This document shows positions 3,741 through 41,894 of a DNA stretch of 45,244 bases, in pieces; position 1 is the stretch's first letter; every line of letters begins with the position of its first letter. The position numbers and the translations under genes are program-made. Location of the stretch: NCBI GenBank assembly GCA_016283195.1, contig JAEEML010000088.1, positions 1 to 45,244 on the forward strand, read 5' to 3'. The DNA comes from Deltaproteobacteria bacterium. GTDB taxonomy: Bacteria > JAEEML01. The notes under the pieces are model-generated. The model searched no databases and was not told the DNA's origin. It worked only from the letters and a program-made list of their open reading frames with translations.

Positions 3741-3795
3741 AGCATATCCTTTGTTTGCATTGTGTCGGCATCCCTAAAATGCCGATTTGCTTATA

Positions 3796-3812: not shown

Positions 3813-3876
3813 TTTTAAAAAGCAAAAAATTGTTATAAGTTGTTGCAGGTTAGCTTTATTTTTTTCAATTTGCCGC

Positions 3877-3934: not shown

Positions 3935-3953
3935 TAAACGAGTTCAGGGCTTA

Positions 3954-12063: not shown

Positions 12064-12269
12064 TTGCTTCTCCCAAATTTAAATAAAGAATCTGCCCATT
12101 TCCATATCCATAGCGGAATAAGGAACAGCCCTATTATTATAATACAAATAAAATAATTAATAAAATACTTATTGCTGTAATTGGCGCGATTACCATGAGT
12201 TTACTTGCAATTCAATTCTTCTTCCAATAAAAAGGCCCTTGGTACGCTTGCGCCATGAGCGGAGTTAAT

Positions 12270-14420
12270 ATGCAATACTGCCCTATTTGCGATACACAAT
12301 ATGAAGATTCGTTAAAAATCTGTCCCAAGGACGGAGCCCAATTGCTGACTATAAAGAACCGCGAGGATCCCCTCATCGGCTCCCGCCTTAAGGATCGCTA
12401 TCTTATTCTCAAAAAAATCGGCGAAGGCGGCATGGGGGCGGTTTATCTGGCCGAACAGCAGCCGCTTGGTCGCCGGGTCGCCATAAAAATGCTCAATTCC
12501 GATGCCCGCGATGACCCGGCTCTCGTTAAACGCTTTCTCCGCGAAGCCAAAGCGCTAAGTGCCCTCTCGCATCCCAATATTGTTTCCATCATCGACTTTG
12601 GCAACACCACCGATGGGGCTGTTTTCCTGGTTATGGAGTATTTGGAAGGGCATCAGCTGGATTATTACACCGGCGAGCACCGTCTTTCCAAAGAAGATCT
12701 GGACAATATCATCTCCCAAACAGCCGCCGGTCTCGCTGCCGCCCATGCTCACGGTCTTATTCATCGCGACATCAAACCGGCCAACATATTTGTCACCGAA
12801 GTAGCCGGGCAAAAAGTAGTTAAAATCCTGGATTTCGGCATAGTTAAAAGTGAAGGCAAAGGGGAGACCAATCTCACGCAATCAGGTAGCGTAGTGGGCA
12901 CCCCTGGTTATATTTCCCCTGAGCAACTCAAAGGCGGTAGCGAGCCGGACAGCCGCTCGGATATTTATGCTCTGGGCGCGGTTATTTATTTTCTTATCAA
13001 AGGCGTACGCCCTTATGACGGCCCTTCGACCCAGTCTATTATTTTTAAGCAGCTGACCGAACCGCCGAATCCCGTTGATTTTGAGCAATACGGTTACGAT
13101 AAAGATATGCGCCAGATAGTTTTAAAAGCCATGGCCATGAACCCGGAGGAGCGCTTTAAAACCACCACCGAGCTCGCCCAAGCCGTGCATCTGGCCATTT
13201 TGGGCAAAAGGCGCTTTAACTGGCGAAAATTTATCATTTTAAATATTATTGTCCTGGCTTTGGCACTCGCGGGGGCACGCGGTTTACAACTTTATATTGC
13301 CCAAGAGCGCCAGCTGGCCGCTACCAGCGATAACACTATCTATTTCGGCCTCTCAAATGCGCTTACCGGCCACAACCGGGAGATGGGTCGGGCAGTTAAA
13401 AATGGTATTGAGGTGGCTATAGCCCGTTACAACGCCATGGGTGGTTTTCATGGCCGAAAAGTAGATTTAATATTAAAAAATGACCGCTATCAGCCGGAAA
13501 AAGCCCAAACTAACGTTAAAGAATTTATCGCCGATACAAAAGTAATGGCTATTGTCGGCAATGGCGGCGATGCCAGTGTAAAAGCTGTTTTGCCGCTGGT
13601 AAACGAAGCTAAAATCCCCCTTATCGGAGCTATTTGCGGCGCTGACTTTATGGCTCCTAAACCGCCGCTGCCTTATGTTTTTAATCTCTCTTCCGGGTAC
13701 AATGCCCAAATGGCCAGAGCTTATGGCTATTATTTTAAAGAATTAGGCCTTAAGAGCTCGGAAATAGCCATCTTTGCTCAAAATGACACCTATGGCCAGG
13801 AGGCTGTCCTTTCGGCGCAAAATTACCTTAAACAGCAGGGACTTTCCCCGGATATTACCGTATTTTGGCATGAAGTCGGAAGCTCCGAAACAACCAGCCA
13901 GTTTGCGGCCTTAAAAGCTGCCCCGCACATTAAAGCCATTATAAGCGCCACCATTGCCCGGCCCATTGCCTATTTCATAGCCGATATGCGGCGCAACGGC
14001 CTAAGCCACCCTTTGATCACCGTCGGTTCGGTGAGCACTATGGAAATAGCCCGGGAAATATCGGCTTTAGGTCTCGAAAATACCAATAATATTTTTGTCA
14101 CCATGACCTTGCCGCCCATAGATGCCGACCTGCCCATGCTGCGCCGTTTTTATGAAGATTTTGCCGAATTTGCCCCCACCGAGCCCACTACGGAATTGGC
14201 TCTGCACGGCTATTTGGCCATGCAAATGACTTTAAGAGCTCTCGCTGCTTTGCCGGGCGATTTAAGCCGCGAAAATCTGCGTCTGGCACTGGAAAGTCTC
14301 CACAGAAACAACTTGGGATTCGGTGGCTATTGCCAAATGTCGGCCAATGATCATACCTGCTTGGAAAAAACTTGGCTTTTGCGCTTTGACGGAGAAAGTA
14401 CCTGGCAAGTCATACCTTGA
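12270..14420 (+). CDS. Membrane Ser/Thr protein kinase with C-terminal type-1 periplasmic-binding-protein (LivJ-like) domain
   Basis: N-terminal CPIC..CPKDG Zn ribbon, GEGGMGAVY, VAIK, HRDIKPAN, DFG, GTPGYISPE, TM helix (FIILNIIVLALALAG), then FGLSNALTG...NDRYQPE..NDTYG fold. GGAG at 12261-12264 favours ATG 12270 over 12255. Confidence 0.9.
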   Translation: MQYCPICDTQYEDSLKICPKDGAQLLTIKNREDPLIGSRLKDRYLILKKIGEGGMGAVYLAEQQPLGRRVAIKMLNSDARDDPALVKRFLREAKALSALSHPNIVSIIDFGNTTDGAVFLVMEYLEGHQLDYYTGEHRLSKEDLDNIISQTAAGLAAAHAHGLIHRDIKPANIFVTEVAGQKVVKILDFGIVKSEGKGETNLTQSGSVVGTPGYISPEQLKGGSEPDSRSDIYALGAVIYFLIKGVRPYDGPSTQSIIFKQLTEPPNPVDFEQYGYDKDMRQIVLKAMAMNPEERFKTTTELAQAVHLAILGKRRFNWRKFIILNIIVLALALAGARGLQLYIAQERQLAATSDNTIYFGLSNALTGHNREMGRAVKNGIEVAIARYNAMGGFHGRKVDLILKNDRYQPEKAQTNVKEFIADTKVMAIVGNGGDASVKAVLPLVNEAKIPLIGAICGADFMAPKPPLPYVFNLSSGYNAQMARAYGYYFKELGLKSSEIAIFAQNDTYGQEAVLSAQNYLKQQGLSPDITVFWHEVGSSETTSQFAALKAAPHIKAIISATIARPIAYFIADMRRNGLSHPLITVGSVSTMEIAREISALGLENTNNIFVTMTLPPIDADLPMLRRFYEDFAEFAPTEPTTELALHGYLAMQMTLRALAALPGDLSRENLRLALESLHRNNLGFGGYCQMSANDHTCLEKTWLLRFDGESTWQVIP

Positions 14421-14514: not shown

Positions 14515-15174
14515 GTGATTAGTAATGAAGCATTAGAAGAAGCCATGAAGGCTGCCGAAGAAAGTGTGGATAACCATATAGCTGCTGCCAAAGAGGCCGA
14601 AAGCCTGATCAGCACCGAGGTGCCGGAAGACTCAGGAGCGCCGAGTACGGCCGAAATAGCCGCCTTAAAAGCCGATATTAATAAAAAAGAGCAGGAATTA
14701 GCCTCTACCAAAGATGCTCTTTTGCGCACTGCCGCCGATTTTGAAAATTATCGCAAGCGCTCGGAAAAAGAGATTAATGAAATTCGCAAATTTGCCGCCA
14801 AGCAACTTTTGCTGGATTTTCTCCCGGTCATGGACAACTTTGAGCGGGCTATAGAGCACCTGCCGGATAGCACCGAAGAACCTGTAAAAAACATGGTAAC
14901 CGGCATAAAAATGATCAAAGACGGCTTTTTAGCCACTTTGCGCCGCCATGGGGCCGAACCTTTTGATTCTCTTGGCAAAACTTTTGACCCAAATATTCAC
15001 GAAGCGCTCACCCAAATGCCCACAAATGAATACGAACCGGGCCAAATTTGCCAGGTTATGGAGCGCGGCTATATGTTGCATGATCGCCTTTTAAGGCCGG
15101 CTAAAGTAGTGGTGGCCTCCGCTATGCCTAAAGCTGCCGAAACTGCCAGTGACCAGGAAACAGCCGGAGAATAA
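14515..15174 (+). CDS. grpE: Nucleotide exchange factor GrpE
   Basis: [59 protein letters not shown] start. Confidence 0.97.
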
Positions 15175-15176
15175 TC

Positions 15177-16994
15177 ATGGGAAGAACAATCGGTATCGAT
15201 CTCGGAACCACCAACTCTTGTGTTGCCGTTCTTGATGGCAATGATCCGCTGGTTATTCCCAATAACGAAGGCTCCAGAACCACCCCCTCGATTGTGGCTT
15301 TTTCGGCCAAGGGCGAGCGACTCGTCGGCCATATCGCCAAGCGCCAGACAGTCACCAACGCCAGCAACACCATTTATGCCGTAAAGCGCTTTATCGGGCG
15401 CAAATTTACTTCTGAGGAAGTTACACAGGATATAACCGCCCTGCCCTATAAAGTAACTGCGGCCGGCAACGGCGACGTGCTGATAAATGTCGGTGGCAAA
15501 GAGCTTTCGCCGCAGGAAATTTCCGCCATGATCCTCGATAAACTGCGCCAAACAGCCGAGGAATACCTGGGCGAGCCGGTTAGCGATGCGGTTATCACCG
15601 TGCCGGCTTATTTCGATGACAGCCAGCGCCAGGCCACCCGCGATGCCGGCCGCATTGCCGGCCTCAATGTAAAGCGCATCATCAACGAACCTACGGCCGC
15701 CGCTCTCGCCTATGGCCACGGACATAGTGACGATGATGGTAAAATTATCGCCGTTTATGATTTAGGCGGCGGTACCTTTGATATTTCCATTTTGGAGCTT
15801 AGGAAAGGCGTTTATAACGTCCTCTCCACCAGCGGTGACACCCATCTGGGCGGCGAAGATTTCGACCGCCGCATTATCGATCATCTCTTAAACAAATTTA
15901 AGGAAGAAACCGGCGTGGAGCTCCACGACAATCCTATGGCCATGCAGCGGGTTAAAGAGGCCGCCGAAAAAGCCAAATTGGAACTCTCCAGTTGTACAGA
16001 GACAGAGATAAATCTGCCCTTTATTGCCGCTTCACAAAATAATTCACATCACCTCATTGCCACTTTAACAAGAGTTGAGCTGGAATCGCTAACCGAAGAG
16101 CTGGTGCAGCGCACTATTGCCCCATGCAAAGTGGCCCTAAATGATGCCAAATTAACCCCGGCCCAGATAAATGAAGTACTCCTGGTTGGCGGCATGACCA
16201 GAATGCCCCTGGTGCAGGAAACAGTTTCCAAATTTTTCGGGCAAAAAGCCAATAAAGAGCTCAACCCCGATGAAGTGGTAGCTGTTGGCGCGGCTGTGCA
16301 GGGTGCTATTTTAAGCGGTCAAGTAAAAAATGTGCTGCTGCTCGATGTCACCCCGCTTAGCCTGGGCGTGGAGACTTCCGGTGGCGTCATGACGGTGCTC
16401 ATTCCTAAAAACACTACCGTTCCCTGCCACAAATCACAGGTATTTACCACGGCTTACGACAATCAGCCCTTTGTCAGTGTGCACATTTTGCAAGGCGAGC
16501 GCCCCATGGCGGCCAATAACAAAACACTGGCCAAATTTGACCTGGTAGGCATTCCGCCGGCCCCGCGCGGTATCCCGCAAATTGAGGTTTCTTTTGATAT
16601 AGATGCCAACGGCATTGTCACTGTTTCCGCCAAAGATCAAGGCACCGGAAAAACCCAAAATATGCGCATCACCTCTTCTTCAGGCCTCTCCGAAGAAGAA
16701 ATTAAATCCATCATCAGCGAAGCCGAATCTTATAAATCAAACGATATATTAAATAAGCAACTGGCCGAACTCAAAAATACGGCTACCGGCCTTATTTATA
16801 CTGCCGAAATGGCCGTTAAAGAGTACGGCAGTTCGCTTTCCACCAAAGATTTAGACCTCATCCAAGCCGATATTGCAGCCTTAAAAGAGGCCATTGAAGG
16901 CGACGATGCCGAGGAAATAAAAAATCTCACCACCCAGCTCGAAGGCTCCAGCCACCGTTTTGCCGATATTCTTTACGGCGAGGCTCTAAAATAG
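15177..16994 (+). CDS. dnaK: Hsp70 chaperone DnaK (short C-terminal tail type)
   Basis: [66 protein letters not shown]. Confidence 0.97.
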
Positions 16995-17015
16995 CTTTTT
17001 TTAAAAGGCTAAAAA

Positions 17016-17660
17016 ATGCTAACTGATAACGATTGTCTAAATGTGCTTTTTCCTCCTCTCTCCAGTGGGGAATTAGCTGTTTTTGCCACCGATACGGTAA
17101 TTGGCCTGGGTTGCCGGATATACCGCCCGGATTTGGTAAAAAAGATATGCGCCGTAAAGGGGCGCCCAATAAATCAGCCGATGGCCCTCTTGGTCTCTTC
17201 CGTTGCCGCCGTAGAGGAAATATCCGCCACCAAGCTAAACCGCGATTTACAAATACTGGCTGAAAAATGCTGGCCGGGCCCGCTGACTTTTTTGGTCAAA
17301 GTAAACGCCGAAAGAATTAAAAGTCATCCTGAATGGTATGCGCTTTTGGCACCAAGCGGCTTTTTGGGCGTGCGTCTTCCGGCTTGCCCGCCACTTTTGG
17401 AAGTCATAGATAAAATGGGCGGTGCCATCATCGCCACCTCAGCCAATTTACATGGTGAAAAAACACCATTAAGCGCCGCTGATTTAGCTCCGGCAATAAA
17501 AAAAGCGGCCGGCGGAATTTGGTTGCCGCCGGGGCTGAAAACTTCCGGACTCGCTTCAACAGTGGTTAAAGTTGAAGGAGAAAGTATTAAGCTGCTGCGG
17601 GAAGGATTTTTTTCGCTAAAGCAGTTGAAAGAGTTTTTAGGCTATGATAAAAGGGCCTAG
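17016..17660 (+). CDS. tsaC: L-threonylcarbamoyladenylate synthase (TsaC/Sua5/YrdC family)
   Basis: TDTV.GL, KGRP, WPGPLT, GVRLP, TSANLHG, STVV motifs. Confidence 0.9.
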   Translation: MLTDNDCLNVLFPPLSSGELAVFATDTVIGLGCRIYRPDLVKKICAVKGRPINQPMALLVSSVAAVEEISATKLNRDLQILAEKCWPGPLTFLVKVNAERIKSHPEWYALLAPSGFLGVRLPACPPLLEVIDKMGGAIIATSANLHGEKTPLSAADLAPAIKKAAGGIWLPPGLKTSGLASTVVKVEGESIKLLREGFFSLKQLKEFLGYDKRA

Positions 17661-17707: not shown

Positions 17708-17959
17708 ATGAGGTCATTTAGATTAAAAATTGCTTTGGGATGTGCCGTTTTGGCATCCTTGCTATTGACCTCCGATATTCTTTGGGCTAAAGCAGGTCGC
17801 AAGGTGATACGCCTAGAGGCCATTAAGGTAGAAGGACGCATCCAAAAGCCCGAAGCCTTTTACATTTTGCAGCGTAGCAACCTTAATTTTGAGGCACTGG
17901 AGCTCAAAGAGAGCTTCATACCTAAAATAGTGGATTCTGTTAACCATAAGCCCTTCTGA
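17708..17959 (+). CDS. cglF: CglF/GltF-like small exported gliding-motility protein
   Basis: Signal peptide followed by RKVIRLEAIKVEGRIQKPEAFYILQRSNLNF...ESFIPKI...PF, which I recognise as the myxobacterial CglF/GltF pattern. Context supports the call. Confidence 0.75.
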   Translation: MRSFRLKIALGCAVLASLLLTSDILWAKAGRKVIRLEAIKVEGRIQKPEAFYILQRSNLNFEALELKESFIPKIVDSVNHKPF

Positions 17960-17997
17960 GCCACGGCAGGCCAGAAGAAACCTTTGAGGAGGAAAGG

Positions 17998-18651
17998 ATG
18001 CTTGCGGGTATAGCCAAATTTTACGTCGAAGGCGGCGCGTTTATGCACCCGATCACGCTGATGTCGGTGATTTCCATCGCCATCATGATTGAGCGCGTTT
18101 ATGCCCTGTACTTCAAGTACAACATCAATGCCGATCAATTTATGGCCCAAATCCAAAAACTGGTTATGGCCAATAATATCGATCGCGCTATCAAACTGTG
18201 CAATGCAGCTCCCAAGGCGGCTCTGCCCAGAGTTATCAAGGCAGCTCTCACCCGCGCCAACAAAGGCGAGGTAGAGATTTCCAACGCCATTGAAGAATCG
18301 ACTCTGGAAGTTCTGCCCCAGCTGAACAAGCGGACACCGCTTCTCACCACGGTTTCCGGTATGGCCACCATGCTCGGTCTTCTCGGTACCATTATCGGTC
18401 TGATCGATGCATTCGCCGCCGTGGCTACTGCACCGCCGGATAAGAAAACCGAGATGCTGACCTTGTCCATCGCTATCGCTATGAACACCACCGCTTGGGG
18501 TCTGATTGTCGCTATCCCCACCACCTTCGTGGCCGTTCTTTTGAACACCACCACCAAGAAAATTGTGGAAGATATCGATCTGTACTCTGTAAAGATGCAG
18601 AACCTCTTGGTTGCTCGTGGCAAAGGTACTACCAATCCTCTGGATCACTAA
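17998..18651 (+). CDS. MotA/TolQ/ExbB proton-channel subunit (AglR-like)
   Basis: GGAFM.PI...ER, ATMLGLLGTIIGLIDAF, IAIAMNTTAWGLIVAIP. Three TM helices. Confidence 0.92.
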   Translation: MLAGIAKFYVEGGAFMHPITLMSVISIAIMIERVYALYFKYNINADQFMAQIQKLVMANNIDRAIKLCNAAPKAALPRVIKAALTRANKGEVEISNAIEESTLEVLPQLNKRTPLLTTVSGMATMLGLLGTIIGLIDAFAAVATAPPDKKTEMLTLSIAIAMNTTAWGLIVAIPTTFVAVLLNTTTKKIVEDIDLYSVKMQNLLVARGKGTTNPLDH

Positions 18652-18690
18652 TTAGATCGCATCTATGGTTAGTACCGCTCTAAGGAGAAG

Positions 18691-19347
18691 ATGATGGGTT
18701 ACAAGCCATCCAAAAAAGGCATTCCGGATTTAGAGACCGGAGCAAATTTGACTCCAATGATGAACCTCATCATGCTGCTCATTCCCTGTTTGCTTATGTC
18801 CACGGTCTTCATCGAGATCACCGTTCTTAATGTGGCCGCGCCCTCTATCGGCGCCCCCGGCGGTGCCAGTGATACCCCTCCTCAGAACGATAAACCTCCG
18901 CTGAACCTGACCGTCACCATTACCAGCAAGGGTTATACCGTTGCCGGTTCTGGTGGCGTTCTGGGTGCGGAAGTCAAAGAGGGTGAGGAATCTAAAGGCC
19001 CGACTATCCCCATTAAGGAAGCATCCGTAAACTGCAGCCAATACATCGATACAGGGCCGGTGCCACGCGACAAAAATCGCGACAGAAAGCCCTGCACCAA
19101 AGACGAAGCGGCGCAGAATGTACATCGTACCTTCTGGATCTATGATAACGAAGCTTTGCAAAAAAAGCTGGTTGAAATCAAAGATGCCTATGAAGACGAA
19201 GAGCGCATTATCATTTCTGCCGAGCAGGATGTCCATTATGAAGCGGTTATCCATGTTATAGATATCTCCCGCCAAATTAAGGATCCCGCCAGTGGCGAAG
19301 TGCGTGAACTCTTCCCGGAAGTTGTCATCAGCCCCGGATTTATGTGA
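18691..19347 (+). CDS. ExbD/TolR-like subunit (AglQ/S-like) with Asn at the conserved TM Asp position
   Basis: NLTPMMNLIMLLIPCLL TM helix, LNLTVTIT, IIISAEQDVHYEAVIHVID, LFPEV. Confidence 0.85.
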   Translation: MMGYKPSKKGIPDLETGANLTPMMNLIMLLIPCLLMSTVFIEITVLNVAAPSIGAPGGASDTPPQNDKPPLNLTVTITSKGYTVAGSGGVLGAEVKEGEESKGPTIPIKEASVNCSQYIDTGPVPRDKNRDRKPCTKDEAAQNVHRTFWIYDNEALQKKLVEIKDAYEDEERIIISAEQDVHYEAVIHVIDISRQIKDPASGEVRELFPEVVISPGFM

Positions 19348-19376
19348 TAGCCGGTTTATGAGGAGTACTAGACGCT

Positions 19377-19964
19377 ATGTCTGATCAGAATATTGAAGCC
19401 CAGAATGCTAGCGAGAGCGCTGCCCCGGCCGCTGCTGCGGTACCGGGTTTTGAGCCGGCTCCCGAAGGTGCCATAAAGGAAAAAAAGAAACGGCCCGTAG
19501 AAACTATCGGTTCGAGTCTTAGTATTGACTCCCTTATGGATATTATGACCATTCTCCTGGTCTTCCTACTTAAGAGCTACTCCGCCGACCCGGTGCAAAT
19601 CAAACAGGCCCCGGGCCTGAGCTTGCCTTTCGCCACTTCCGAATTAAAGCCAGAAGAAGCTACAGCTATCACCATTACTTCCACTTCTATCACCGTCGAT
19701 GATAAAAAAGTGGTTGCTCTGGAGGATGGCAAGCCCAACCAGGCTGATATCGCCGGTGACCACCTGATTCAGCCGCTCCTTGATTCCCTCGTTGAAGCCG
19801 TTGACCATCAAAAACGCATCGGCCAAATGAATAAAAAGGAATTTAGCGGAATAGTCACTGTCGTTGCCGACCGCCACATGTCTTTTAATATGCTCATAAA
19901 GATTATGTACACAGCCGGCCAAGCTCAATTCAGCAAATATAAATTTGCGGTCATAAAGAGCTAA
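19377..19964 (+). CDS. ExbD/TolR-like subunit (AglS-like)
   Basis: LSIDSLMDIMTILLVFLLKSYS, VVADRHMSFNMLIKIMYTAGQAQFSKYKFAV. Confidence 0.88.
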   Translation: MSDQNIEAQNASESAAPAAAAVPGFEPAPEGAIKEKKKRPVETIGSSLSIDSLMDIMTILLVFLLKSYSADPVQIKQAPGLSLPFATSELKPEEATAITITSTSITVDDKKVVALEDGKPNQADIAGDHLIQPLLDSLVEAVDHQKRIGQMNKKEFSGIVTVVADRHMSFNMLIKIMYTAGQAQFSKYKFAVIKS

Positions 19965-20005
19965 AAAACTTACCTTACAGCATGGTATCGTAGCGGTGAC
20001 ATTAA

Positions 20006-21406
20006 ATGGTTGATGCAAATTCTTCAAATGTCAGAGCACCAAGAGGACCGGTAGCGCAGGCTAATACCAGTCAGCATAAAGTACTGCGCATTCTGGTTTT
20101 AGAGGGGCGCAAGGTCATTGAAGATAAGCTTTTGCGCAAACCGCAGAAGGTTAATATCTCCTGTGATGCCAGCAAAAAAGCCACCATCAATATCCCCAGT
20201 GTCGGCGTGCCACAACACCACTTGCTCTTTGAACCGGCTAAAGGCGGTTATACCCTCTATTTTACCGATAAAATGGGCGGCCGCCTATCGAATGCCAGCG
20301 GTCAAGCGGATTTACAAACTCTTAGACATCACCAGGGTGTTGTAAATCGCGGCGGCATTTACGCTATCTTCATAGATGAAAACACCAAAGGCAAAGTGTT
20401 TTTTGGGGAAGATGCCGTTATTCTCTTTCAATTTGTTGCGCAGCCGCCGGAGCCCAAAGCCGAAAAACTAAATCTTTCCATTAAAGATACTCTGGCTCAC
20501 AGCATAGACTGGATTTTTATGCTGCTTTTAGCCGGTGCTTTTCTTTTTGAAACCGGCTTTGTTTATACTCTCTATCATACACCCATGCCGCCGGAAAAAT
20601 CCTTTGATGAAGTTAACGAGCGCTGGGCGGCCCTCATTGTTCCCGACTTAAAACGGGAAGAAAAACCCCCGGAACCGGAACAAAAAGATGGAGAAGGGCC
20701 TTCTACTAAAAAGAAAGAAGAGCCCCAAAAGATGGAGAAGCAGGATACTTCCAAGATGAGCGAGTCGCAAAAGGAGGCATATACTGCCGCCCGCAAAGAA
20801 AAAGCTCGCTCTCTCGTGGCCGGCAAAGGCGTTTTGGCTATGATCGGCACTGCCGGAGAAGGCTCTGCCAGCGGTTTTGTGGCTGATGTTTTTGGCCAAA
20901 ATGCCGGCATCAGCGAAGGTGCTTTTGATGGCATCACGGGCATCGGTGTGGCAACAGGAGACGGCGAACGCACAAGACGCGGTGGCTCAGCTGTCGGCGA
21001 CGCTGCCAGCATTGATAAGCTCGGCACATCCGGCGGCGGCCAGGTAGCTTCCGGCACCAAAAAAGAGACTAAGGTGTCATCGGTTGTAAAAAGTGAGGCT
21101 CCGGAAGTTGACGGCGATCTCGATCCCAATGCCGTAGCCAAATATGTTAAAGCGCGCATGACCTCTATCAAAGAATGCTATGAGCGTGAACTAAAGCGCG
21201 ACCCCAAACTGGCCGGCAAACTTACTATTTCTTTTACTATTGAAACCGATGGCAAAATTTCGGAAACTTATGTAGAAAGCAACACCATGGGCAATAAAAA
21301 TGTGGCCAATTGTATCACCGGCCGCATCAGAAGCTGGCGCTTTCCCAAGCCCAAAGGCGGTAGCGTCACGGTGGCCTATCCCTTTATTTTCTCGCCAAGT
21401 ACCTGA
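20006..21406 (+). CDS. GltG/PglI(AgmX)-like energy transducer: cytoplasmic FHA-like region, TM helix, charged/Gly-rich linker, TonB-C-like domain
   Basis: TM at ~aa 168-190. C-terminal IKECYERELKRDPKLAGKLTISFTIETDG...CITGRIRSWRFPKPKGGSVTVAYPFIF. Confidence 0.85.
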   Translation: MVDANSSNVRAPRGPVAQANTSQHKVLRILVLEGRKVIEDKLLRKPQKVNISCDASKKATINIPSVGVPQHHLLFEPAKGGYTLYFTDKMGGRLSNASGQADLQTLRHHQGVVNRGGIYAIFIDENTKGKVFFGEDAVILFQFVAQPPEPKAEKLNLSIKDTLAHSIDWIFMLLLAGAFLFETGFVYTLYHTPMPPEKSFDEVNERWAALIVPDLKREEKPPEPEQKDGEGPSTKKKEEPQKMEKQDTSKMSESQKEAYTAARKEKARSLVAGKGVLAMIGTAGEGSASGFVADVFGQNAGISEGAFDGITGIGVATGDGERTRRGGSAVGDAASIDKLGTSGGGQVASGTKKETKVSSVVKSEAPEVDGDLDPNAVAKYVKARMTSIKECYERELKRDPKLAGKLTISFTIETDGKISETYVESNTMGNKNVANCITGRIRSWRFPKPKGGSVTVAYPFIFSPST

Positions 21407-21525: not shown

Positions 21526-23514
21526 ATGCCGGAATTGGGGTCAATAATTGGCGATCGTTATGAGCTCATAAGCGAACTGGGCCAAGGAGCCATGAGTATC
21601 GTCTATGCCGCACGTGACCTGCGCCTAAACAGGCAGGTGGCCATTAAAATGCTCCTGCCGCATCTTGCCGGTAAAGAAGAAGCGGTACTGCGCTTTCAGC
21701 GCGAAGCAGCCGCAGTGGCCAGGCTTGATGAGCACCCCAATATTGTCCGCATTTATGATTATAGCGGCCCGGATGTAACTCCGGCCTACCTCGTTATGGA
21801 ACTGGTATCCGGCCCTACTCTGGCCACCTTTATGGCCAGCCATCCTCTGTCCTGGCCGGATCTTGCTGCCATTATTGTAGAACCTCTGGCCAGAGCTCTG
21901 GCTGTGGCTCACGAAACCGGAATCATTCACCGCGATATTAAGCCGGAAAATATCATGTTTAGCTCTGCCGGCCAGATTAAACTGGTGGATTTTGGCATTG
22001 CCAGAGCTGTTGGCAGTGCCACACTCACTTCCACCGGAGCACTCATGGGCTCACCGGCTTATATGGCGCCGGAATATATCAACGGCGAGCCGCCGGATAT
22101 AAGAGCCGATATTTATTCCTTGGGGATTCTGCTCTATCACCTGGTCACCTCGGCTATGCCTTTTGAAGCCTCAAATCCGGCGGCGCTTTTTAAAAAAATC
22201 TGCTCCGGTGAATTTTCCCCGCCGGAACAATTCGAGCCCAAAGTAAGCCGCCAGTTAAATAGCGTAATTTGCAAGGCACTAGCCTTAAACCGCGCAGAAC
22301 GCTTTCAAAGTGCCGCTGAACTGGCCAAAGCTTTACAAGATATCGCCAATACTCTTTCACTCGGCCCGATAGATGAAGCTCTGGCAGCCTATTATGCCGC
22401 GCCTGAGCAATATATTGCCGAAAAACTGCCACTCTGGCTGGAGGGGGAAAAAGAGGCGGCCCGGCAGGCTGCCGCTGCCCGGCACACCGGCGAAGCCCTG
22501 GCTCATTATGAGCGTCTTTGCACCTTTTGCCCGGATAATCAGGAACTGGCCGGCGCCATAAAGCACCTCTTAAAAAAAGAGTGGCGCTGCCATTTTGCCA
22601 AAACCTTGCTGATCGTTCTTCTTATAATACTTCTTTTAAGCGGCGGCGCTTTTACTCTTTTTTGGACTCTGCCGCCGGACGAAGTGGACGCACCTCTAAA
22701 TGATGCCCTAAGCGATAGCGCCATGCTGCCGGAGATAACCGGCGCCAATAGCTCCGATGCTGTAACGGATATTAAAAATCCGCCAAACGATACCATAACC
22801 GATAAAGCGCCTATTAAGCCGCCGGCAGAAAATATGGCGGCTAAAACCAGGCCGGCAGTACAAAAAATTCGCGCTCTGGTTGATAAAACTACCCATAAAA
22901 GACGCGAGCGTAATATTCCTGCGCCGCCTCCGGCACAGGCGGCCAAGGTGGAAGATCCTTCTTCTGCCGCCCTCTCTCCGGCCGCTAAAACACCAAAGAC
23001 TCCTCCCCCGGCCGAAGACGCTACAGCGGAAAACCAAGTATTGCCAGTGAGTTCAAAAGCAGAAACGCCAAAAATTCCAGTGACTTTTCATGCCTTTCCC
23101 TTTGCCTCTATTTGGATTGACAATAAGCTGGCCGCCCAAAATGCCATGACGCCCATAACTGTCAATTTATCACCTGGCACCCATAAAGTCCGCTTTGAGC
23201 ATCCGGCCGCGCACACGCTCGAAGAGACTTATTCAATAGACGAAAAAAATAACGAACCTGCCTTCCGCGTGCACATGCAGCCCTTGCCGGCCAAATTAAT
23301 TCTGGATATTCCCGAGGGCTCTCTGGTAGAACTGGGAGATGAGCGCTGGCTAACCAGCCCCTATAGCAAAAACGAAGGCCACATTGTAGAATTACCTGAC
23401 AAAGCCTTCCGTCACAGCTATAAGGTAACAATAACGGAGCCGGGGCGTTCTCCCTGGAGCAAGGTTGTTGAATTTAAGGCCGGAGAAACAGTGCGGCTCA
23501 CTTCCGGAAGATGA
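21526..23514 (+). CDS. Membrane Ser/Thr protein kinase with Pro/Ala linker and PEGA-like C-terminal domains
   Basis: GQGAMSIVY, VAIK, HRDIKPEN, DFG, GSPAYMAPE, TM (LLIVLLIILLLSGGAFTLFW), PFASIWIDN...TPITVNLSPGTHKVRFEHP. Confidence 0.9.
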   Translation: MPELGSIIGDRYELISELGQGAMSIVYAARDLRLNRQVAIKMLLPHLAGKEEAVLRFQREAAAVARLDEHPNIVRIYDYSGPDVTPAYLVMELVSGPTLATFMASHPLSWPDLAAIIVEPLARALAVAHETGIIHRDIKPENIMFSSAGQIKLVDFGIARAVGSATLTSTGALMGSPAYMAPEYINGEPPDIRADIYSLGILLYHLVTSAMPFEASNPAALFKKICSGEFSPPEQFEPKVSRQLNSVICKALALNRAERFQSAAELAKALQDIANTLSLGPIDEALAAYYAAPEQYIAEKLPLWLEGEKEAARQAAAARHTGEALAHYERLCTFCPDNQELAGAIKHLLKKEWRCHFAKTLLIVLLIILLLSGGAFTLFWTLPPDEVDAPLNDALSDSAMLPEITGANSSDAVTDIKNPPNDTITDKAPIKPPAENMAAKTRPAVQKIRALVDKTTHKRRERNIPAPPPAQAAKVEDPSSAALSPAAKTPKTPPPAEDATAENQVLPVSSKAETPKIPVTFHAFPFASIWIDNKLAAQNAMTPITVNLSPGTHKVRFEHPAAHTLEETYSIDEKNNEPAFRVHMQPLPAKLILDIPEGSLVELGDERWLTSPYSKNEGHIVELPDKAFRHSYKVTITEPGRSPWSKVVEFKAGETVRLTSGR

Positions 23515-23529: not shown

Positions 23530-24444
23530 GTGGCATTTCGCATAAATATCGGCGCTATTACTTTGGCCATTATTTTGAATCTTTGGCCCCTCTTAGTGCA
23601 CGCCCAAATGCCGGCGCCGCCCTCGCCACCGCCACCCTCTGCCGGAGATCCTGCGGAAGGAGCATTTTCCCCCACCGACACCTTCAGGCTGGGCAAAAAT
23701 CAATTTACCCACGGCCAATATGATGAAGCTATAAGCAACATAACCGCCGTTATTTATCCTCTGAGCCTGGACTCGGAAGACGATGTAGTGGAAGCCAGGC
23801 GTATTTTGGCTATTGCATATTATCTCACCGGGCATAAGGATCTTGCCACTACCGAATTCACCAAATTGCTCTATTTGCGCCCTCTTTATAAGCTGGATCC
23901 TTTCTTAGTGGCCCCATCCATTATCGAATTTTTTGAACAAATCAGAAAAAAATTAAAGCCGCAGTTAGACCCGCTCATTATGTCCGAAGTAGATAGTTCC
24001 AAACAAGCCAGCAGTGCTCTAAGCGGCAAATCTATCCGCGTGGAATATCACTATAATTCCCGGGCTCTTACTTTTTTCCCTTTTGGCATCGGCCAATTGC
24101 AAAACGGCGACAAAGCCTTGGGCTATACCTCGCTGGCCGTGCAAACCTCGGCACTCACACTAAATATTGTTTCGGCCATTGTGGCTTATCGCAGCAACAA
24201 TAGCTATTCTGCTCTTTTAAGGGCCAATGCCGCCGGCGAAGACCCTTGGCAAAAGGAGCGTTTGCAAGAGCTCTCAAGCCGCAGCAAGGCCATGATGATT
24301 ACCAATATAATAGCGGCCAGTGTCTTCACTCTCACCTGGTTTTTAAGCGCTGTCCACGCCAATTATCGCTATGTACCTTATCGCACGGAAATCTCCAGCG
24401 AAGACGTGGACCAAGCTCTGCTTAACGGGGGAGAAAGGCCGTGA
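23530..24444 (+). CDS. Exported TPR-like protein with hydrophobic C-terminal segments
   Basis: Signal peptide (LVHA-Q), poly-Pro, TPR-like helices (GQYDEAI, ARRILAIAYYLTG, F..LL.L.P.Y.LDP), PFGIGQLQNG motif. Confidence 0.7.
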   Translation: MAFRINIGAITLAIILNLWPLLVHAQMPAPPSPPPPSAGDPAEGAFSPTDTFRLGKNQFTHGQYDEAISNITAVIYPLSLDSEDDVVEARRILAIAYYLTGHKDLATTEFTKLLYLRPLYKLDPFLVAPSIIEFFEQIRKKLKPQLDPLIMSEVDSSKQASSALSGKSIRVEYHYNSRALTFFPFGIGQLQNGDKALGYTSLAVQTSALTLNIVSAIVAYRSNNSYSALLRANAAGEDPWQKERLQELSSRSKAMMITNIIAASVFTLTWFLSAVHANYRYVPYRTEISSEDVDQALLNGGERP

Positions 24445-25401: not shown

Positions 25402-26199
25402 GTGGTTCAGGCAATTGCAAATCATTTAGAAAATCTGCTTAAAAGCGGCGCTATCAGCCCAGCACAAATGGGGGCCATCAGCGAAGCTGAGCTCACAGCG
25501 CTCTATGCCTTCAGCCTTAAGGAGCTTGATGCCGGCCAATATGAAAACGCTCTGAAATTGCTTGGCGGCCTGACAGCTCTCGATGGCAGTAAAGCTAAAT
25601 ACTGGCGCGCGCTGGGAGTAGCCGCCCAATGCGCTTCTTTAAACAACGAAGCCCTTATGGCCTATGAAAAAGCCCTCGCCCTCGATAATAAAAGCGCTTA
25701 TATCTATATTTACCGCGCCGAAATATACCTTTTGCAAGGCAAAATCGGTGCCGCCAAAGAAGATCTGTACACCGCTTATCTCCTGCACAAAAAGCACCAA
25801 TTGGCACCGCCACTTTTGGAGCGCCTCGATAAAACCAATAAACGCCTTAAAAGCAAAGAGTCAGCCATAAGTCCGCCCCATAAAGACGCTGCCCGGCCGG
25901 CACCACCCCAAAAAGCGGAAAAAACAGAAAAAGCCGCGCTTAAAACCGGAATTTCCCAGAGTTTCGACGAAGATTTGGAAAAAACGCTCACCGCTATAAA
26001 AGCCATAGAAAAGCCGTCTGTAGCCGCAAATAGCGAGAAAATGGCGGCGCACAGTATTAAAGCTCCATTGCCGCATAAAAAGCCGGCCGCCAAAGAAGAG
26101 GCGCTGGATGCGGAAGAGGCCACTAAAACAGCTATAAAAGCCCCTTTTGACCCGGAAGTCACCAAAACATCCATAAAGCCGATTAAAGGGGCTCCGTAA
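25402..26199 (+). CDS. SycD/LcrH-like TPR chaperone with low-complexity C-terminal extension
   Basis: GAISEAELTALYAF...AGQYENA..L...L.ALD...KYW.ALG...Q.......A...Y..A..LD.......Y.AE..L..G....A pattern. GGAGG RBS, GTG start. Confidence 0.7.
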   Translation: MVQAIANHLENLLKSGAISPAQMGAISEAELTALYAFSLKELDAGQYENALKLLGGLTALDGSKAKYWRALGVAAQCASLNNEALMAYEKALALDNKSAYIYIYRAEIYLLQGKIGAAKEDLYTAYLLHKKHQLAPPLLERLDKTNKRLKSKESAISPPHKDAARPAPPQKAEKTEKAALKTGISQSFDEDLEKTLTAIKAIEKPSVAANSEKMAAHSIKAPLPHKKPAAKEEALDAEEATKTAIKAPFDPEVTKTSIKPIKGAP

Positions 26200-26703: not shown

Positions 26704-27915
26704 ATGAAAAAAGCTGGTTGGTTTCTCTTCTTATGTGCAGCTCTTTGTTTAAGCACTGCCGCATGCAACAAGAATAACGAGGGCAACAAAAGCGGGGAAA
26801 ATTCCAAGGAAAATAACAATGATAGCAATAAAGTCAGCGGCGAGTGCGAAAAGGGTAAATTCGGCCCGGATTGCCAGCCCTGTACCTGTAAAAACGGCAC
26901 TTGCAATGATGGCAAAGAAGGCAGCGGCGAGTGCGTATTTTGCGAAAAAGGCTTTTATGGGAAAAATTGCGAAAATCAATGCGCATGTAACAGCTTGCAA
27001 ACCTGCATAGGCGGCCCGAACGGCACCGGTTGCCAATGCAAAAACGGCGGGACAGGCAGCGATTGTAGCGATACTTTATCCGATGAAGACGATTTCTGCC
27101 TGCCAAACACTTTCGGCCCAGAATGCCAACCCTGCACTTGTGTCACCACTAACGGCTTTTGTGATGACGGTAAAGAGGGCGGCGGCGCATGCCTCTCCTG
27201 CTACTTTGGCTATTACGGCGCGAATTGCGAACATGAGTGCGAGTGTGCAGATAGCCAGGTGTGCAATGACGACATTACCGGCATCGGTTGTAAATGCTCC
27301 GGCGGCTTTACAGGCGATGATTGCTCCACTTGTTCTTTAACCGAAGGGCAAAAAGGCACTTTTACGGATCAGCGCGATGGCAAAGAATACGCCACCGTAG
27401 TTATAAATTGCCAGGTTTGGCTGGCAGAAAATTTAGCCTATGCGGGCCAGGATGTAGGCTGCGACGCCAGCACCGATGATGCTGATTTTCTAAACAAATA
27501 CGGCTGCTTATATCTTTGGGAAAGTGCAAAGAAAGCTTGCCCCACTGGCTGGCATTTACCAAGCAAGATGGATCTTCACGAGCTCATTAATTATTTGTAT
27601 GTAGATGAAGAGGACGAGGCCGATAAATATGAACAAGCCTTTCTCGCCCTTATTAAAGCCGCTGCCTGGCAGGAAGAGGAAAGCAGCACTGCTACCGGCT
27701 TTGATGCTCTGCCGGCCGGCAGCTTGCGCTACTTTTTGGCAGACGGCGAATTAGTAGATAAATACAGCGTGGATTTTGGTGAAGGTGCCGAATTCTGGTC
27801 CAGTGATGTAGATGATCTGAATGCTACCACGCTGAGTTTATGGCTAGGTGAAGCCAGAGCCGTTTCCAGCTACTATAAGGACTCTTTATATTCCGTGCGT
27901 TGCATCAAAGATTAA
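26704..27915 (+). CDS. Lipoprotein with EGF-like Cys-rich repeats and C-terminal FISUMP (Fibrobacter succinogenes major paralogous) domain
   Basis: Lipobox-like STAA-C, two Cys-rich blocks, GTFTDQRDGKEYATVVINCQVWLAENLAY, YGCLYLW..A..ACPTGWHLPS, GFDALPAG, FWSS, SVRCIKD. Confidence 0.92.
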   Translation: MKKAGWFLFLCAALCLSTAACNKNNEGNKSGENSKENNNDSNKVSGECEKGKFGPDCQPCTCKNGTCNDGKEGSGECVFCEKGFYGKNCENQCACNSLQTCIGGPNGTGCQCKNGGTGSDCSDTLSDEDDFCLPNTFGPECQPCTCVTTNGFCDDGKEGGGACLSCYFGYYGANCEHECECADSQVCNDDITGIGCKCSGGFTGDDCSTCSLTEGQKGTFTDQRDGKEYATVVINCQVWLAENLAYAGQDVGCDASTDDADFLNKYGCLYLWESAKKACPTGWHLPSKMDLHELINYLYVDEEDEADKYEQAFLALIKAAAWQEEESSTATGFDALPAGSLRYFLADGELVDKYSVDFGEGAEFWSSDVDDLNATTLSLWLGEARAVSSYYKDSLYSVRCIKD

Positions 27916-29009: not shown

Positions 29010-30368
29010 CTAACCAAGGGCTTTGGCAATAACGCCGGCCAATTCCTCGGCCCAGTAAGTAACGCGATCTTCACTGGGGCCTTCAACCATCACTCTGGCC
29101 AAAGCTTCCGTGCCGCTAAAGCGCACCACTGCCCGCCCGTCATGGCCAAATTCATCTTCCATAGCTTTTAGGGCCTTTTTTACCTCTGGAAGATCGTTAA
29201 TCGGTTCTTTTCTGGCCACTTTTACATTAATGAGTTTTTGGGGATAAATTTCCATCACTTTTTTGAGTTCGCTTAAGGGCTTACCGGTGCGCAGCATAAC
29301 TTCAATCAGGCGGATAGCGGCCAGCGTGCCGTCGCCGGTGGTAGAATAATCAAGATAAACCAGGTGGCCTGATTTTTCGCCGCCGAAATTATAGCCGTTT
29401 TTGCGCATTTCTTCCACCACATAGCGGTCGCCCACCTGGGTGCGCACCAGTTTGCCGCCGGCCCGCTCAATAGCCCGCTCCAGGCCCAGATTAGACATAA
29501 CTGTGGCCACAAGAGTATTTTTTGCCAGCGTCCCCTGCTTTAGCATATAGGTGGCGCAGATAGCCATAATTTGGTCGCCGTCCACTTCTTCGCCGTTTTC
29601 GTCGCTGATAAAGAGGCGGTCGGCATCGCCATCTAAGGCCATACCGAGAGCGGCACCGTGTTTAGGCACGAGGCGCATCATCTGCTGCGGGTGGAGTGAA
29701 CCGCAGCGCAAATTAATATTGGTGCCATCGGGAGTCACGCCGAGAGTAGTAACAATAGCCCCCAGCTCGCTCATAATGGTGGGAGCCACATGGTAAGCGC
29801 TGCCATTGGCACAATCCACCACTATGCGCATACCGTCCATATCTAGGTCATCGGGAAATGAGCTTTTGACAAAAACCAGATAGCGCCCTTTGGCATCATC
29901 AACGCGGCTGGCCCGCCCCACATGGCCTTTGGTGGGGCGCATATTGCTGCGGTGATTTTCCAAAACATAGCGCTCCATTTCCACTTCCACCGCATCGGGC
30001 AATTTATAGCCGTCGCGGCCGAAGAATTTTATACCGTTATCCTGATAAGGATTGTGCGAAGCGCTGATTACCACCCCGCCATCGGCCCGCATACTGCGCG
30101 TTAAAAAGGCAATAGCCGGCGTAGGCATGGGGCCAACCAAAAGCACATCTGCTCCGGCCGAACAAATACCGGAAGCCATAGCCATTTCCAGCATATAGCC
30201 GGAAGCCCGCGTATCTTTGCCTATAACAATGCGGTGGCGGTGCCTGCCGGAGCGGGAAGTCATGGCAATAGCTCGCCCCAAAGCCAGAGCCACTTCAGAA
30301 GTCATGGGATATTGATTGGCAATACCGCGCACCCCGTCGGTGCCGAATAATTTACGCGTTACGCTCAT
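29010..30368 (-). CDS. glmM: Phosphoglucosamine mutase
   Basis: [63 protein letters not shown]. Confidence 0.97.
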
Positions 30369-31321
30369 TTGCCCCTTCTCCTTTTCTGGGTGGATTTGGC
30401 TTTTTGCGGGATATATTCCACCACTGCCGAGGGCAGAGTACTAATGATATAAGCCCCCTCCGGCACACCCTGGAGCTCCGGCTCAAAAGCTACAGTACCG
30501 GAAGATATACTACTTAAATCTTCTGCCGAAACCACAAGACGCAATTTTTTAACATCCATCTTATCAATAATGCGCTTGGGCCCACGCACCGTAACTGAAG
30601 CCGAGCGCGTTTTAAGCCTGGCGCCGGGAAAATCATTTTCAAAAACAATGGGTACCCTAGCGCTCTTTTTGATGAGCTCCTCATTAATGGGAATCATCAC
30701 AGTGATTTTTGGGGGCTGCCCTTTAAATTGCAAAGGATAATTAATGGGTTTTAGCTCCACTTCCGGCTTTAGATCAATAGTGGCTCCTTCAATATCTATC
30801 ACCTTGGTAAAAATAGCATCAATTTGATTCACTTCTGTAGAAGGACCGGTAATTATTACTGTTTCCGGGTTTAAAATCGCATCATCTCTAATATAACCGT
30901 TAGCCGGCTCGCCTACAATATGAGCGGTAACCGGCACCCGGCGCTCCACCTGCCTATCCAGTTGCAATTGCAAATGGGAGGGCATTACCTGCACCGGTTT
31001 TAAGCCGGCAAAGCTGGGAATTTGCTCCGGGGCCAATGTTATTTGCGCTGTACCCGGGCCTTGATCTCTAAGATCCAAAATATAAGGCATGGGCGTCCGC
31101 TCATTCCAAGAGCGCAAAGTGGCCAAGGGACCCTGATAAGTCACCTTTACCGTGCTGGGTATTTCCGACATATGCAAAATATCCGGTGCCAAATTTATTT
31201 GAAAAGGCACATCAACTACTTTAGTGGTGCCGATTTCCACCGAAATTAAAAAGTACATTACAATAGCCGTAAAAAGCGAAAAGAGCTTTAAGCGGAAATT
31301 TTCAATGAAAATTTTTCTCAT
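30365..31321 (-). CDS. cdaR: CdaR/YbbR-domain regulator
   Basis: N-terminal [11 protein letters not shown], YbbR repeats ([15 protein letters not shown]). Lies between cdaA and glmM. Confidence 0.88.
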
Positions 31322-31323
31322 AA

Positions 31324-32124
31324 TTATTTCCTCGGCCGGGGCTCAAAATATTTTTGCAAAACCTGGCGCAAAACATCTTCATCCAAATCGCGGGTTATCT
31401 GTCCGTTTTCGGCGATGGAAATTTGCCCCCGCTCCTCAGAAACCACTACAGCCATGGAATCATACTCTTCGGTAACACCTATAGCGGCACGGTGGCGGGT
31501 ACCCAGCTGCGGATCGAGGTGGGGATTTCTGGTGAGCGGCAAAACCACGCGGGCGGCGGCAATGCGCCCCTGCTGAATGATAACAGCGCCGTCATGAAGC
31601 GGGCCTTTGGGCCAAAATATTTGCTCCAAAAGCGGGGCGGAAAGCTGAGCATCCAGCTTATCGCCGGTAACCGCCAGCTCGCTCAAATTGCCTTCGCGCT
31701 CTATAACAATAATAGCGCCGATGCGCTGTCTGGCCATGGAAGCACAGGCCCGGCTCACCTCTTCCACCAAAAGAGCGCCGCGCTCGGCACTGCTACGCGA
31801 CCAGAGAGTATTGCCGCCAACCCGTGAGAGCACACGGCGGATATCGTGCTGAAACACCACAATAATGAGCACCAAAAGGGAGCTGGTAAAAGTCTCTAAA
31901 ATCCAGGAAAGGGTTTTTAAATTAAATATTTTGGCTCCCAAAAAGACGAGGAGCATGAGAAAGAGACCGGTGAGTACCTGCTGCGCCAGCGTGCCGCGAA
32001 TAAGGTACAAAACCCAATATATTACCATGGCCACCAGGATAATATCTATAGCACTGGTAATCACCGTGCGCACCACTTCCACAGTGGGTGATTGCCACCA
32101 GGTCATAAAGGCTGTTAAATCCAT
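31324..32124 (-). CDS. cdaA: Diadenylate cyclase CdaA/DacA
   Basis: Three TM helices, VVFQ.DIRR.L, GAIIVIER, PLHDGAVII, GTRHRAAIG, VVVSEERG.IS. Confidence 0.96.
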   Translation of the reverse strand: MDLTAFMTWWQSPTVEVVRTVITSAIDIILVAMVIYWVLYLIRGTLAQQVLTGLFLMLLVFLGAKIFNLKTLSWILETFTSSLLVLIIVVFQHDIRRVLSRVGGNTLWSRSSAERGALLVEEVSRACASMARQRIGAIIVIEREGNLSELAVTGDKLDAQLSAPLLEQIFWPKGPLHDGAVIIQQGRIAAARVVLPLTRNPHLDPQLGTRHRAAIGVTEEYDSMAVVVSEERGQISIAENGQITRDLDEDVLRQVLQKYFEPRPRK

Positions 32125-41876: not shown

Positions 41877-41894
41877 ATTTGTCTCCCTGGCTGG

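Follow-up and report, generated by a model that had tools for sequence, protein, structure and literature searches.

To our knowledge, no bacterial systems other than machines of the Agl/Glt class harness a Tol/Exb-type motor for directed transport at the surface. For Myxococcus xanthus, Luciano 2011 (PMC3169522) distinguishes the gliding clusters G1, G2 and M1 (aglRQS) and the sporulation paralogue G3 (nfs), lists the further paralogues G4, G5 and M2 as being of unassigned function, and describes a 'core complex' of aglRQS with gltC, gltD, gltE and gltG as widespread in non-gliders. According to Table S3 of that paper, G4 consists of MXAN_1923 (809 amino acids, aa), MXAN_1922 (1111 aa), MXAN_1921 (490 aa), MXAN_1920 (91 aa) and MXAN_1919 (447 aa). 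Here we analyse contig JAEEML010000088.1 of a Deltaproteobacteria bacterium (assembly GCA_016283195.1; the whole stretch of 45,244 nucleotides (nt) is referred to as the window), in which five + strand open reading frames (ORFs) at 17708-21406 encode a putative GltF-like exported protein, one ExbB/TolQ-like motor protein, two ExbD/TolR-like proteins and a GltG-like transducer. We consider it likely that this operon specifies the inner-membrane half of an envelope machine that belongs to the Agl/Glt class and to the paralogue type represented by G4 (and probably M2), and not a gliding machine itself. Within its known family the operon is rather unremarkable, and it gives no sign of gliding.

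The first gene (17708..17959, + strand as are all five) encodes a small exported protein of 83 aa, p83, which appears to be a distant GltF/CglF paralogue. It is followed at 17998..18651 by an AglR-like MotA/TolQ/ExbB subunit of 217 aa (Pfam MotA_ExbB, E 3e-23), at 18691..19347 by an ExbD/TolR-like paralogue of 218 aa in the AglQ position (ExbD1; Pfam ExbD, E 8.4e-12), at 19377..19964 by a second such paralogue of 195 aa in the AglS position (ExbD2; Pfam ExbD, E 3.9e-10) and at 20006..21406 by a GltG-like bitopic transducer of the G4 type, 466 aa long. The gaps between them in the ORF listing are 38, 39, 29 and 41 nt, and this listing and the Pfam and NCBIfam matches agree with the gene content, coordinates and 29-41 nt gaps given in an initial annotation of the window. 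Shine-Dalgarno-like GGAG and GAGGAGG motifs stand just 5' of the first two start codons (p83 and the AglR-like gene). Antisense ORFs overlapping the five genes had no support, and the five can be taken as real genes rather than chance ORFs because each has strong homologues. As in the Agl/Glt class, one AglR-like protein is encoded beside two distinct ExbD/TolR paralogues, in the order ExbB-ExbD1-ExbD2.

The transducer aligned with the NCBIfam model of GltG (NF033760) at E 2e-57, residues 13-466 falling on model positions 189-649 of 650, and since the alignment begins at model position 189 the first FHA domain of GltG is missing here. The model of the AgmX/PglI C-terminal domain (NF033768) was matched with 115 bits, above its cutoff of 40. 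In the AlphaFold2 model of the protein (mean pLDDT 71.7, with both folded domains near 90), a cytoplasmic FHA-like all-beta domain (about 25-145) is followed by a transmembrane (TM) helix (about 157-191), a disordered periplasmic linker rich in Lys/Glu/Pro and Gly (218-356) and a mixed alpha/beta AgmX/PglI domain that resembles a TonB C-terminal domain (CTD; about 359-464). In Foldseek searches against the PDB, the first domain matched FHA domains (1uht, E 9e-4, TMt 0.64; 5a8i; 4qcj) and the last matched TonB CTDs (6fip, 6sly and 5lw8). The layout mirrors residues 190-640 of M. xanthus GltG, which comprise the central FHA domain, TM segment, linker and TonB-CTD (PMC11761067), without the first FHA domain. 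Conservation of the GltG-like family extends over its full length of about 440-470 aa. The protein is in these respects a GltG-type transducer, with an FHA-type domain, one TM segment, a long linker and a TonB-CTD-like AgmX/PglI tail, as in the Agl/Glt class.

Relatives were collected by scanning one genome per species with the GltG-like family alignment; 290 were confirmed and the best 80 loci were kept. All 80 carry the label Myxococcota, 'Bdellovibrionales' or delta-proteobacterial metagenome-assembled genome (MAG), and their GltG-like proteins are 33-43% identical to that of the window in full-length alignments. A p83 homologue was detected by tblastn upstream of the GltG-like gene and on the same strand in 75 of the 80 loci, either adjacent to it or with only motor genes between. 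Of the other five loci, three are truncated at a contig end (L016, L031 and L068), L005 carries p83 on the other strand and L057 lacks it. Nine complete loci of the 80 have the full order p83-ExbB-ExbD-ExbD-GltG (L001, L003, L005, L008, L010, L012, L015, L033 and L038), L005 being counted with its p83 inverted, and L016, which starts inside the second ExbD gene, is probably a tenth compact locus. A Myxococcales MAG (L055) has two GltG-like genes in tandem (3390-4637 and 4800-6110), whose two products have 29% and 35% identity to the GltG-like protein of the window.

Upstream genes were counted only in loci with a same-strand p83 and enough upstream sequence. A GltE-like gene was present in 66/66 informative loci, a GltD-like gene in 56/56 and a GltC-like gene in 45/46. 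The GltD-like proteins of the relatives (about 1110-1220 aa) are made of YbgF/CpoB-type TPR repeats, the GltE-like proteins (about 400-630 aa) match the NCBIfam GltE model at E 1.5e-13 to 2e-34, and an 803-aa protein of Citreicoccus matches the GltC model at E 1e-20. On the 3' side of the cluster, relatives carry a cyclic nucleotide (cNMP)-binding protein in 44 of 68 loci and an FG-GAP (integrin-alpha-like) repeat protein of about 1300 aa in 11 of 60 (e.g. L001 10396-14792 and L015 9438-13832). The initial annotation had placed the operon in the Agl/Glt family; the GltG and AgmX/PglI-tail models support that placement, as opposed to one among ordinary ExbBD-TonB or TolQRA systems, as does the context, in which relatives carry the operon's genes right behind GltC-, GltD- and GltE-like genes.

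The scores of the motor ring protein speak against TolQ and ExbB. A search with its family profile matched 17,420 cluster representatives at E <= 0.001, of which 339 reached E <= 1e-30, and the 150 representatives listed carry no protein names. Solved TolQ and ExbB in the PDB scored only 33.8 bits (E 3e-7) and 26.8 bits, respectively. The protein is 58-74% identical to its counterparts in the compact loci, with T131 and T165 invariant, and the best 120 matches listed in the ExbB search were all close metagenomic relatives with generic names (64-100% identity). For the closest metagenomic relatives of the operon, the matching proteins are 89-99% identical to those of the window and come from short contigs.

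The two ExbD paralogues are 18% identical to each other in alignment. Single-sequence searches of the PDB with either gave no match at E <= 10, and the family profile alone reached ExbD/TolR. ExbD2 has a cytoplasmic N-terminal extension of about 45 aa, its TM Asp (D55) is conserved throughout the alignment of 10 sequences, and its family profile aligns to both ExbD and TolR chains. ExbD1 matches Pfam ExbD over residues 17-195 (model positions 7-115) and has Asn25 (N25) at the channel position in place of the usual Asp; in the ExbD family profile this column aligns with the TM Asp of the FIDVMLVLL segment of solved ExbD chains. The column is Asn in the window and in five of the nine counterparts (L001, L003, L015, L033 and L038) and Asp in the other four (L005, L008, L010 and L012). 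About 45 aa, including two Cys, are also inserted in the periplasmic part of ExbD1. L005 has no such insertion, and every other counterpart conserves both Cys, which could form a periplasmic disulfide.

p83 begins with a segment that, judged by eye from the sequence, resembles a signal peptide. Its mature core is conserved (...VIRLEAIKVEGRIQKP.AFYILQRSNLNFE....), and nine columns of the family alignment are invariant (E42, G43, I45, Q46, K47, P48, A50, R56 and L59). The nearest Atlas clusters are Myxococcota hypothetical proteins of 78-83 aa. The CglF/GltF model NF033764 is matched at E <= 0.01 by 54 of the 76 aligned family members (best E 3.3e-8), and the best score among members whose bit scores were seen is 30 bits (L079), none being near the cutoff of 90. 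Because most members match the model, yet none of those seen nears its cutoff, p83 is, by these profile comparisons, a distant GltF/CglF paralogue and no CglF/GltF equivalog. The initial annotation, which had called the 83-aa protein CglF/GltF-like, was thus right about a distant relationship; the score expected of an equivalog was not reached.

Among described systems the closest match is G4. The Citreicoccus locus L079 encodes, in order, proteins of 803 aa, 1114 aa, a GltE-like protein, 91 aa and 448 aa, and since it matches MXAN_1923-1919 in gene order and sizes the fetched family is, by these two features, of the G4 type. The window likewise pairs a GltG paralogue in the size class of about 450 aa with an upstream GltF paralogue in that of about 80-90 aa. 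In Fig S4 of Luciano 2011 (PMC3169522), the accessions EDM80280-EDM80286 of Plesiocystis pacifica SIR-1 appear in turn as GltC, GltD, GltE, AglR, AglQ, AglS and GltG leaves, the Glt leaves beside MXAN_1923, 1922, 1921 and 1919 and the Agl leaves beside MXAN_3003, 3004 and 3005, which are M2. As the seven accessions are consecutive, they indicate one contiguous cluster of G4-type glt genes with an M2-type motor, and by analogy the motor of the window is probably M2-type as well. The compact layout, which the initial annotation stressed, is therefore not new: it was already published, implicit in the Plesiocystis accessions, where G4-type glt genes are combined with an M2-type motor.

In a quick maximum likelihood tree of 77 GltG-like proteins (one 31-aa row dropped), the window falls within a clade of 16 MAG rows, starred (99), to which every compact locus belongs. 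Its sister, also starred (99), consists of 61 Myxococcia rows, in whose loci the motor genes are absent. The end branch leading to the window is long (1.1), and its exact position in the tree is therefore unsure. Tables S1 and S3 of Luciano 2011 (PMC3169522) put mglA (MXAN_1925) two locus tags away from the G4 cluster (MXAN_1919-1923). In the G4-like loci L079 and L009, the short ORFs at the upstream end, examined for MglA, had no Pfam match. The literature that we found on G4 and M2 locus tags consists of Luciano 2011 and Wartel 2013 only.

The window differs from nearly all of these relatives in what lies upstream. The GltC/D/E-like and downstream proteins of the relatives, searched by tblastn against the whole 45-kb window, gave nothing better than E 0.08, which bears out the initial annotation's remark that the operon is not flanked by gltD/E or by glt genes for outer-membrane parts. 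Two downstream ORFs (23530-24444 and 25402-26199) were considered as stand-ins for GltC/D/E and rejected, their TPR matches being sub-threshold and their similarity to the relatives' GltD/E being E 0.56-0.79. The linked GltD, GltE and GltC genes of the Agl/Glt-Nfs class are thus not found within the 45-kb window. Such detachment of the cassette from gltC/D/E is unusual (0/66 informative same-strand loci without gltE), and among the loci collected only L005 (and probably L016) and L057 are detached like the window. The initial annotation had also proposed a self-contained trans-envelope machine, and this is not supported, there being no periplasmic pillar or outer-membrane part in the window and a nearly constant link to GltC/D/E in the relatives.

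Several results weigh against the assignment to an Agl/Glt-class machine of the G4 type. The GltG-like protein scored 195 bits against the GltG equivalog cutoff of 650, and p83 scored 15.5 bits (E 0.013) against the CglF/GltF cutoff of 90. By eye, the FHA-like domain lacks an obvious Gly-Arg / Ser-x-x-His pattern, which makes phosphothreonine binding doubtful. A scan for a + strand terminator or a clear promoter bounding the operon found none above shuffle expectation. The 45-kb window contains no homologue of GltC/D/E, GltA/B/H/K or CglB, so that the locus itself does not display a trans-envelope path. The reading of Fig S4 follows the leaf order in text extracted from the PDF, not the drawn tree, and is a strong lead and no test. 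In other 5:2 motors a change of Asp to Asn at the equivalent site inactivates the motor, and for this reason ExbD1 could be a non-conducting or regulatory subunit and not half of a working axle. Finally, the predicted complex of p83 with the GltG-like CTD was a weak pass, with an ipSAE of 0.48 compared to 0.13 for the best control; the runs shared at least 91% of contacts and the partner pLDDT was at least 50. Of the 157 solved complexes and 215 mismatches in the calibration, 116 and 2, respectively, attained the passing mark, and a value that reached the mark with ipSAE <= 0.60 was seen in 18 of the 157 solved complexes and in both passing mismatches. This pairing was likely beforehand, because of the adjacency of the two genes (75/80 loci) and of the published AlphaFold model, where the TonB-CTD of GltG is paired with a strand of GltF (PMC11761067).

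A first alternative is that the operon encodes a compact, self-sufficient Agl-Glt gliding or prey-contact motor whose load is either the cell itself or adhesins on its surface, for instance the EGF-repeat proteins encoded nearby. The homology to GltG, GltF and AglRQS-type components would fit, as would the modularity of Agl motors, which power both gliding and spore-coat assembly (PMC3858216). At 5-17 kb upstream lie two large EGF-repeat proteins of the teneurin/laminin type (1690 and 998 aa; 3954-9026 and 9067-12063, - strand), the 'EGF adhesins' of the initial annotation, and a secretin/ATPase pair (1-3740, - strand), made up of an 888-aa secretin with N0, Secretin_N and Secretin domains and a type II secretion/type IV pilus-type ATPase with MshEN that is cut by the window end. 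The FG-GAP repeat protein that follows the cluster in some relatives is also a possible surface cargo, and we regard it as a candidate cargo or adhesin of G4-type systems. However, the closest cultured counterparts are of the G4 type, and in Luciano 2011 gliding was unaffected by an insertion in MXAN_1922, the G4 gltD homologue, and by deletion of MXAN_3004 of M2 (PMC3169522). Deletion of MXAN_3004 also left sporulation unaffected in Wartel 2013, and in the same report MXAN_3003 gave no two-hybrid interaction with GltG or NfsG (PMC3858216). Luciano 2011 argues, moreover, that the core genes are insufficient for motility (PMC3169522). In the window, GltA/B/H/K, CglB and GltC/D/E are lacking, GltI/J and MglAB were not among the 30 ORFs scanned, the GltG equivalog score is missed and the first FHA domain is absent. 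The EGF genes lie on the other strand, and grpE, dnaK and sua5/yrdC (14515-17660, + strand, directly upstream of the operon, where relatives have gltC/D/E) and a gene for a Ser/Thr protein kinase fused to a Peripla_BP_6 domain (12255-14420, + strand) intervene. Gliding or prey contact, which the initial annotation had suggested, is on these grounds quite unlikely.

Still less probable is an ordinary ExbB-ExbD-ExbD-TonB energiser for TonB-dependent uptake across the outer membrane. The C-terminal domain of the transducer has a TonB-CTD-like fold with weak sequence likeness to TonB (Pfam TonB_C E 0.087; TIGR01352 E 0.0073; TonB chains in the PDB, by family profile, E 0.004-0.09), and several databases label its relatives 'TonB family protein'. 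A layout of one ExbB, two ExbD and a TonB-like gene is also not peculiar to Agl systems, ExbB-ExbD-ExbD-TonB sets being present in other phyla. However, the scores are below the family cutoffs (TonB_C 13.7 against 24.6, tonB_Cterm 16.6 against 27.1 and, for the motor ring protein, ExbB TIGR02797 30 bits against 206), whereas the AgmX/PglI tail passes its own. No TonB-dependent receptor was found among the 30 window ORFs scanned, relatives sit within gltC-D-E-F-G clusters, and a cytoplasmic FHA-like domain is foreign to TonB. We therefore regard an uptake system as very unlikely.

The least probable alternative, a Tol-Pal-like system for envelope integrity or cell division, can draw on TolQ, which scores better than any other named relative of the motor protein (TIGR02796 E 5e-15; PDB TolQ), and on the YbgF/CpoB-type repeats of the relatives' GltD-like proteins, but is highly improbable given TolQ and TolR scores far below the cutoffs (55.8 against 221 bits, and 19.8 and 19.1 for the two ExbD paralogues against 127), no TolA, TolB, Pal or CpoB beside the operon, two different ExbD/TolR paralogues where Tol systems have one, and a separate bona fide Tol-Pal locus beside the Agl/Glt paralogues in M. 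xanthus (PMC3169522).

The preferred reading, an inner-membrane half of a G4-type machine, would work as follows. Five copies of the AglR-like protein would form a proton-conducting ring around one ExbD1-ExbD2 heterodimer, as in the 5:2 motors TolQR, ExbBD and MotAB; we infer this stoichiometry from solved TolQR and ExbBD structures and from an AlphaFold model of AglR5-AglQ-AglS (PMC11761067). Protons would pass via Asp55 of ExbD2 and the ring threonines, making the complex turn or flex. The Asn that ExbD1 has in the corresponding position would leave ExbD2 as the one protonatable subunit of the axle. The GltG-like protein would dock to the motor through its single TM helix, as suggested by the published two-hybrid interaction of AglR with GltG (PMC3169522), and the work would pass along the flexible linker to the TonB-like CTD. 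There the exported p83 may bind, as the conserved adjacency, the GltF-GltG model and the weak complex-prediction pass suggest. GltC/D/E-like periplasmic and outer-membrane partners would be encoded elsewhere in the genome, or be absent.

As for the host, matches to DnaK, encoded two genes upstream of the operon, fall at 82% and 69% identity, on short contigs, and then at 62-65%, and among the 120 matches listed 14 have an organism name, 13 being Myxococcota and one a 'Deltaproteobacteria bacterium'. Because of these matches and the GltG tree, the data suggest that the organism is a deep-branching relative of Myxococcota. The 82% DnaK match and a 90% ExbB match come from the same source, with a longest contig of 6621 nt each, which fits the same arrangement in a relative, not necessarily on one contig.

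Downstream of the transducer gene by 120 nt, a Ser/Thr kinase with a weak C-terminal PEGA domain is encoded at 21526-23514 (+ strand). It matches the PADLOC 'PD-T4-6' kinase models at E 1e-92, probably a generic kinase similarity, and kinases are also encoded within about 3-5 kb in L008, L010 and L012. A defence-system reading of the operon, of the Zorya MotAB-like type, was rejected: in PADLOC one of the five proteins matched ZorA with no more than 15.7 bits (E 0.0012), and the other four gave no match. Domain scans of the remaining window identified a 403-aa protein with a Fib_succ_major (Fibrobacter succinogenes major paralogous) domain at 26704-27915 (+ strand, E 3.7e-24), the trio cdaA (DAC domain), ybbR and glmM at 29010-32124 (- strand), which is the usual c-di-AMP synthase operon, and a 128-aa PIN-domain protein at 33181-33567 (- strand), possibly the toxin of a toxin-antitoxin pair. 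At 41121-45209 (- strand) lie four genes of the kind expected in an anaerobic electron-transfer module, for a NuoE-like 2Fe-2S protein, a NuoF-like protein with flavin mononucleotide (FMN)/4Fe-4S domains, a 2Fe-2S/4Fe-4S ferredoxin-domain protein and a thiamine pyrophosphate (TPP)-enzyme C-terminal domain, which are compatible with anaerobic metabolism and do not prove it.

On present evidence, no gliding is revealed in a new kind of organism, and a modest interest remains in the detached cassette, the apparent single-Asp axle and the hypothesis that G4 pairs with M2. Even where the TPR pillar genes are missing, the GltF-GltG pair of the G4 type stays together with a motor of its own. The layout also suggests that in M. 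xanthus the likely motor of G4 is M2, a pairing hypothesis for two orphan sets, and a single axle subunit with a natural change of Asp to Asn is of interest for the stepping of 5:2 motors. One may go further and regard the five genes as an autonomous 'energiser cassette' (GltF-like, AglR-like, two ExbD and GltG-like) that was cut loose from GltC/D/E here and independently in the L005/L016 lineage, that perhaps acts as a minimal machine on a different partner and that has a natural single-Asp asymmetric 5:2 axle, with the corollary that M2 (MXAN_3003-5) is the dedicated partner of G4 (MXAN_1919-23). We hold this extended proposal to be unlikely.

Compared to known systems, the operon shares with ExbB-ExbD-TonB and TolQ-TolR-TolA its 5:2 motor families, a transducer that spans the membrane once and has a flexible linker, and the TonB-CTD-like fold. 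In contrast to them, it has family scores far under the cutoffs, a heteromeric ExbD pair and a cytoplasmic FHA-like domain, and its genomic partners are Glt genes instead of receptors or Pal/TolB. With the Agl-Glt gliding and Agl-Nfs spore-coat machines it has in common the AglR/Q/S, GltG and GltF families and a presumed logic in which a motor driven by the proton-motive force acts on a bitopic FHA-TM-TonB-CTD transducer and, through it, on periplasmic partners. It differs from Agl-Glt in missing the GltG and CglF equivalog scores, in the absence of the N-terminal FHA domain and of GltI/J/K/H/A/B and CglB from the window, and in the Asn of ExbD1, where a conserved Asp is reported for both AglQ and AglS (review PMC9389320). 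The 'core complex' described for Gammaproteobacteria, Geobacter and Fibrobacter (PMC3169522) likewise unites a motor and a GltG-type transducer in one presumed operon, in hosts not known to glide; by that description it always comes with gltC/D/E and one extra gene and without gltF, whereas here a gltF-like gene is present and gltC/D/E are absent from the locus.

The nearest comparisons are to G4, M2 and the Plesiocystis cluster. From G4 the window differs in having no gltC/D/E paralogues, and its GltG-like protein is only 33-39% identical to the Myxococcia GltG4-type proteins. M. xanthus keeps M2 and G4 apart, whereas here the motor stands between the gltF-like and gltG-like genes. In Plesiocystis and in eight MAG loci (L001, L003, L008, L010, L012, L015, L033 and L038), a gltE-like gene lies directly upstream, with gltD- and gltC-like genes where the sequence reaches, while the window has sua5, dnaK and grpE instead; the Plesiocystis accession run lists no gltF-like gene, which may be unannotated. 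The eight MAG loci share the interleaved layout of the window, and accession numbers and leaf positions in Plesiocystis EDM80280-EDM80286 likewise put AglR/Q/S-like genes directly before a G4-type GltG-like gene. The likeness to G4 and M2 extends to the size class of the GltG-like protein (466 compared to 447 aa), which has no first FHA domain, to the small GltF-like protein upstream (83 compared to 91 aa), to the motor gene order R-Q-S and to the cultured Myxococcaceae and Archangiaceae loci of the GltG-like family, which match G4 in order and sizes.

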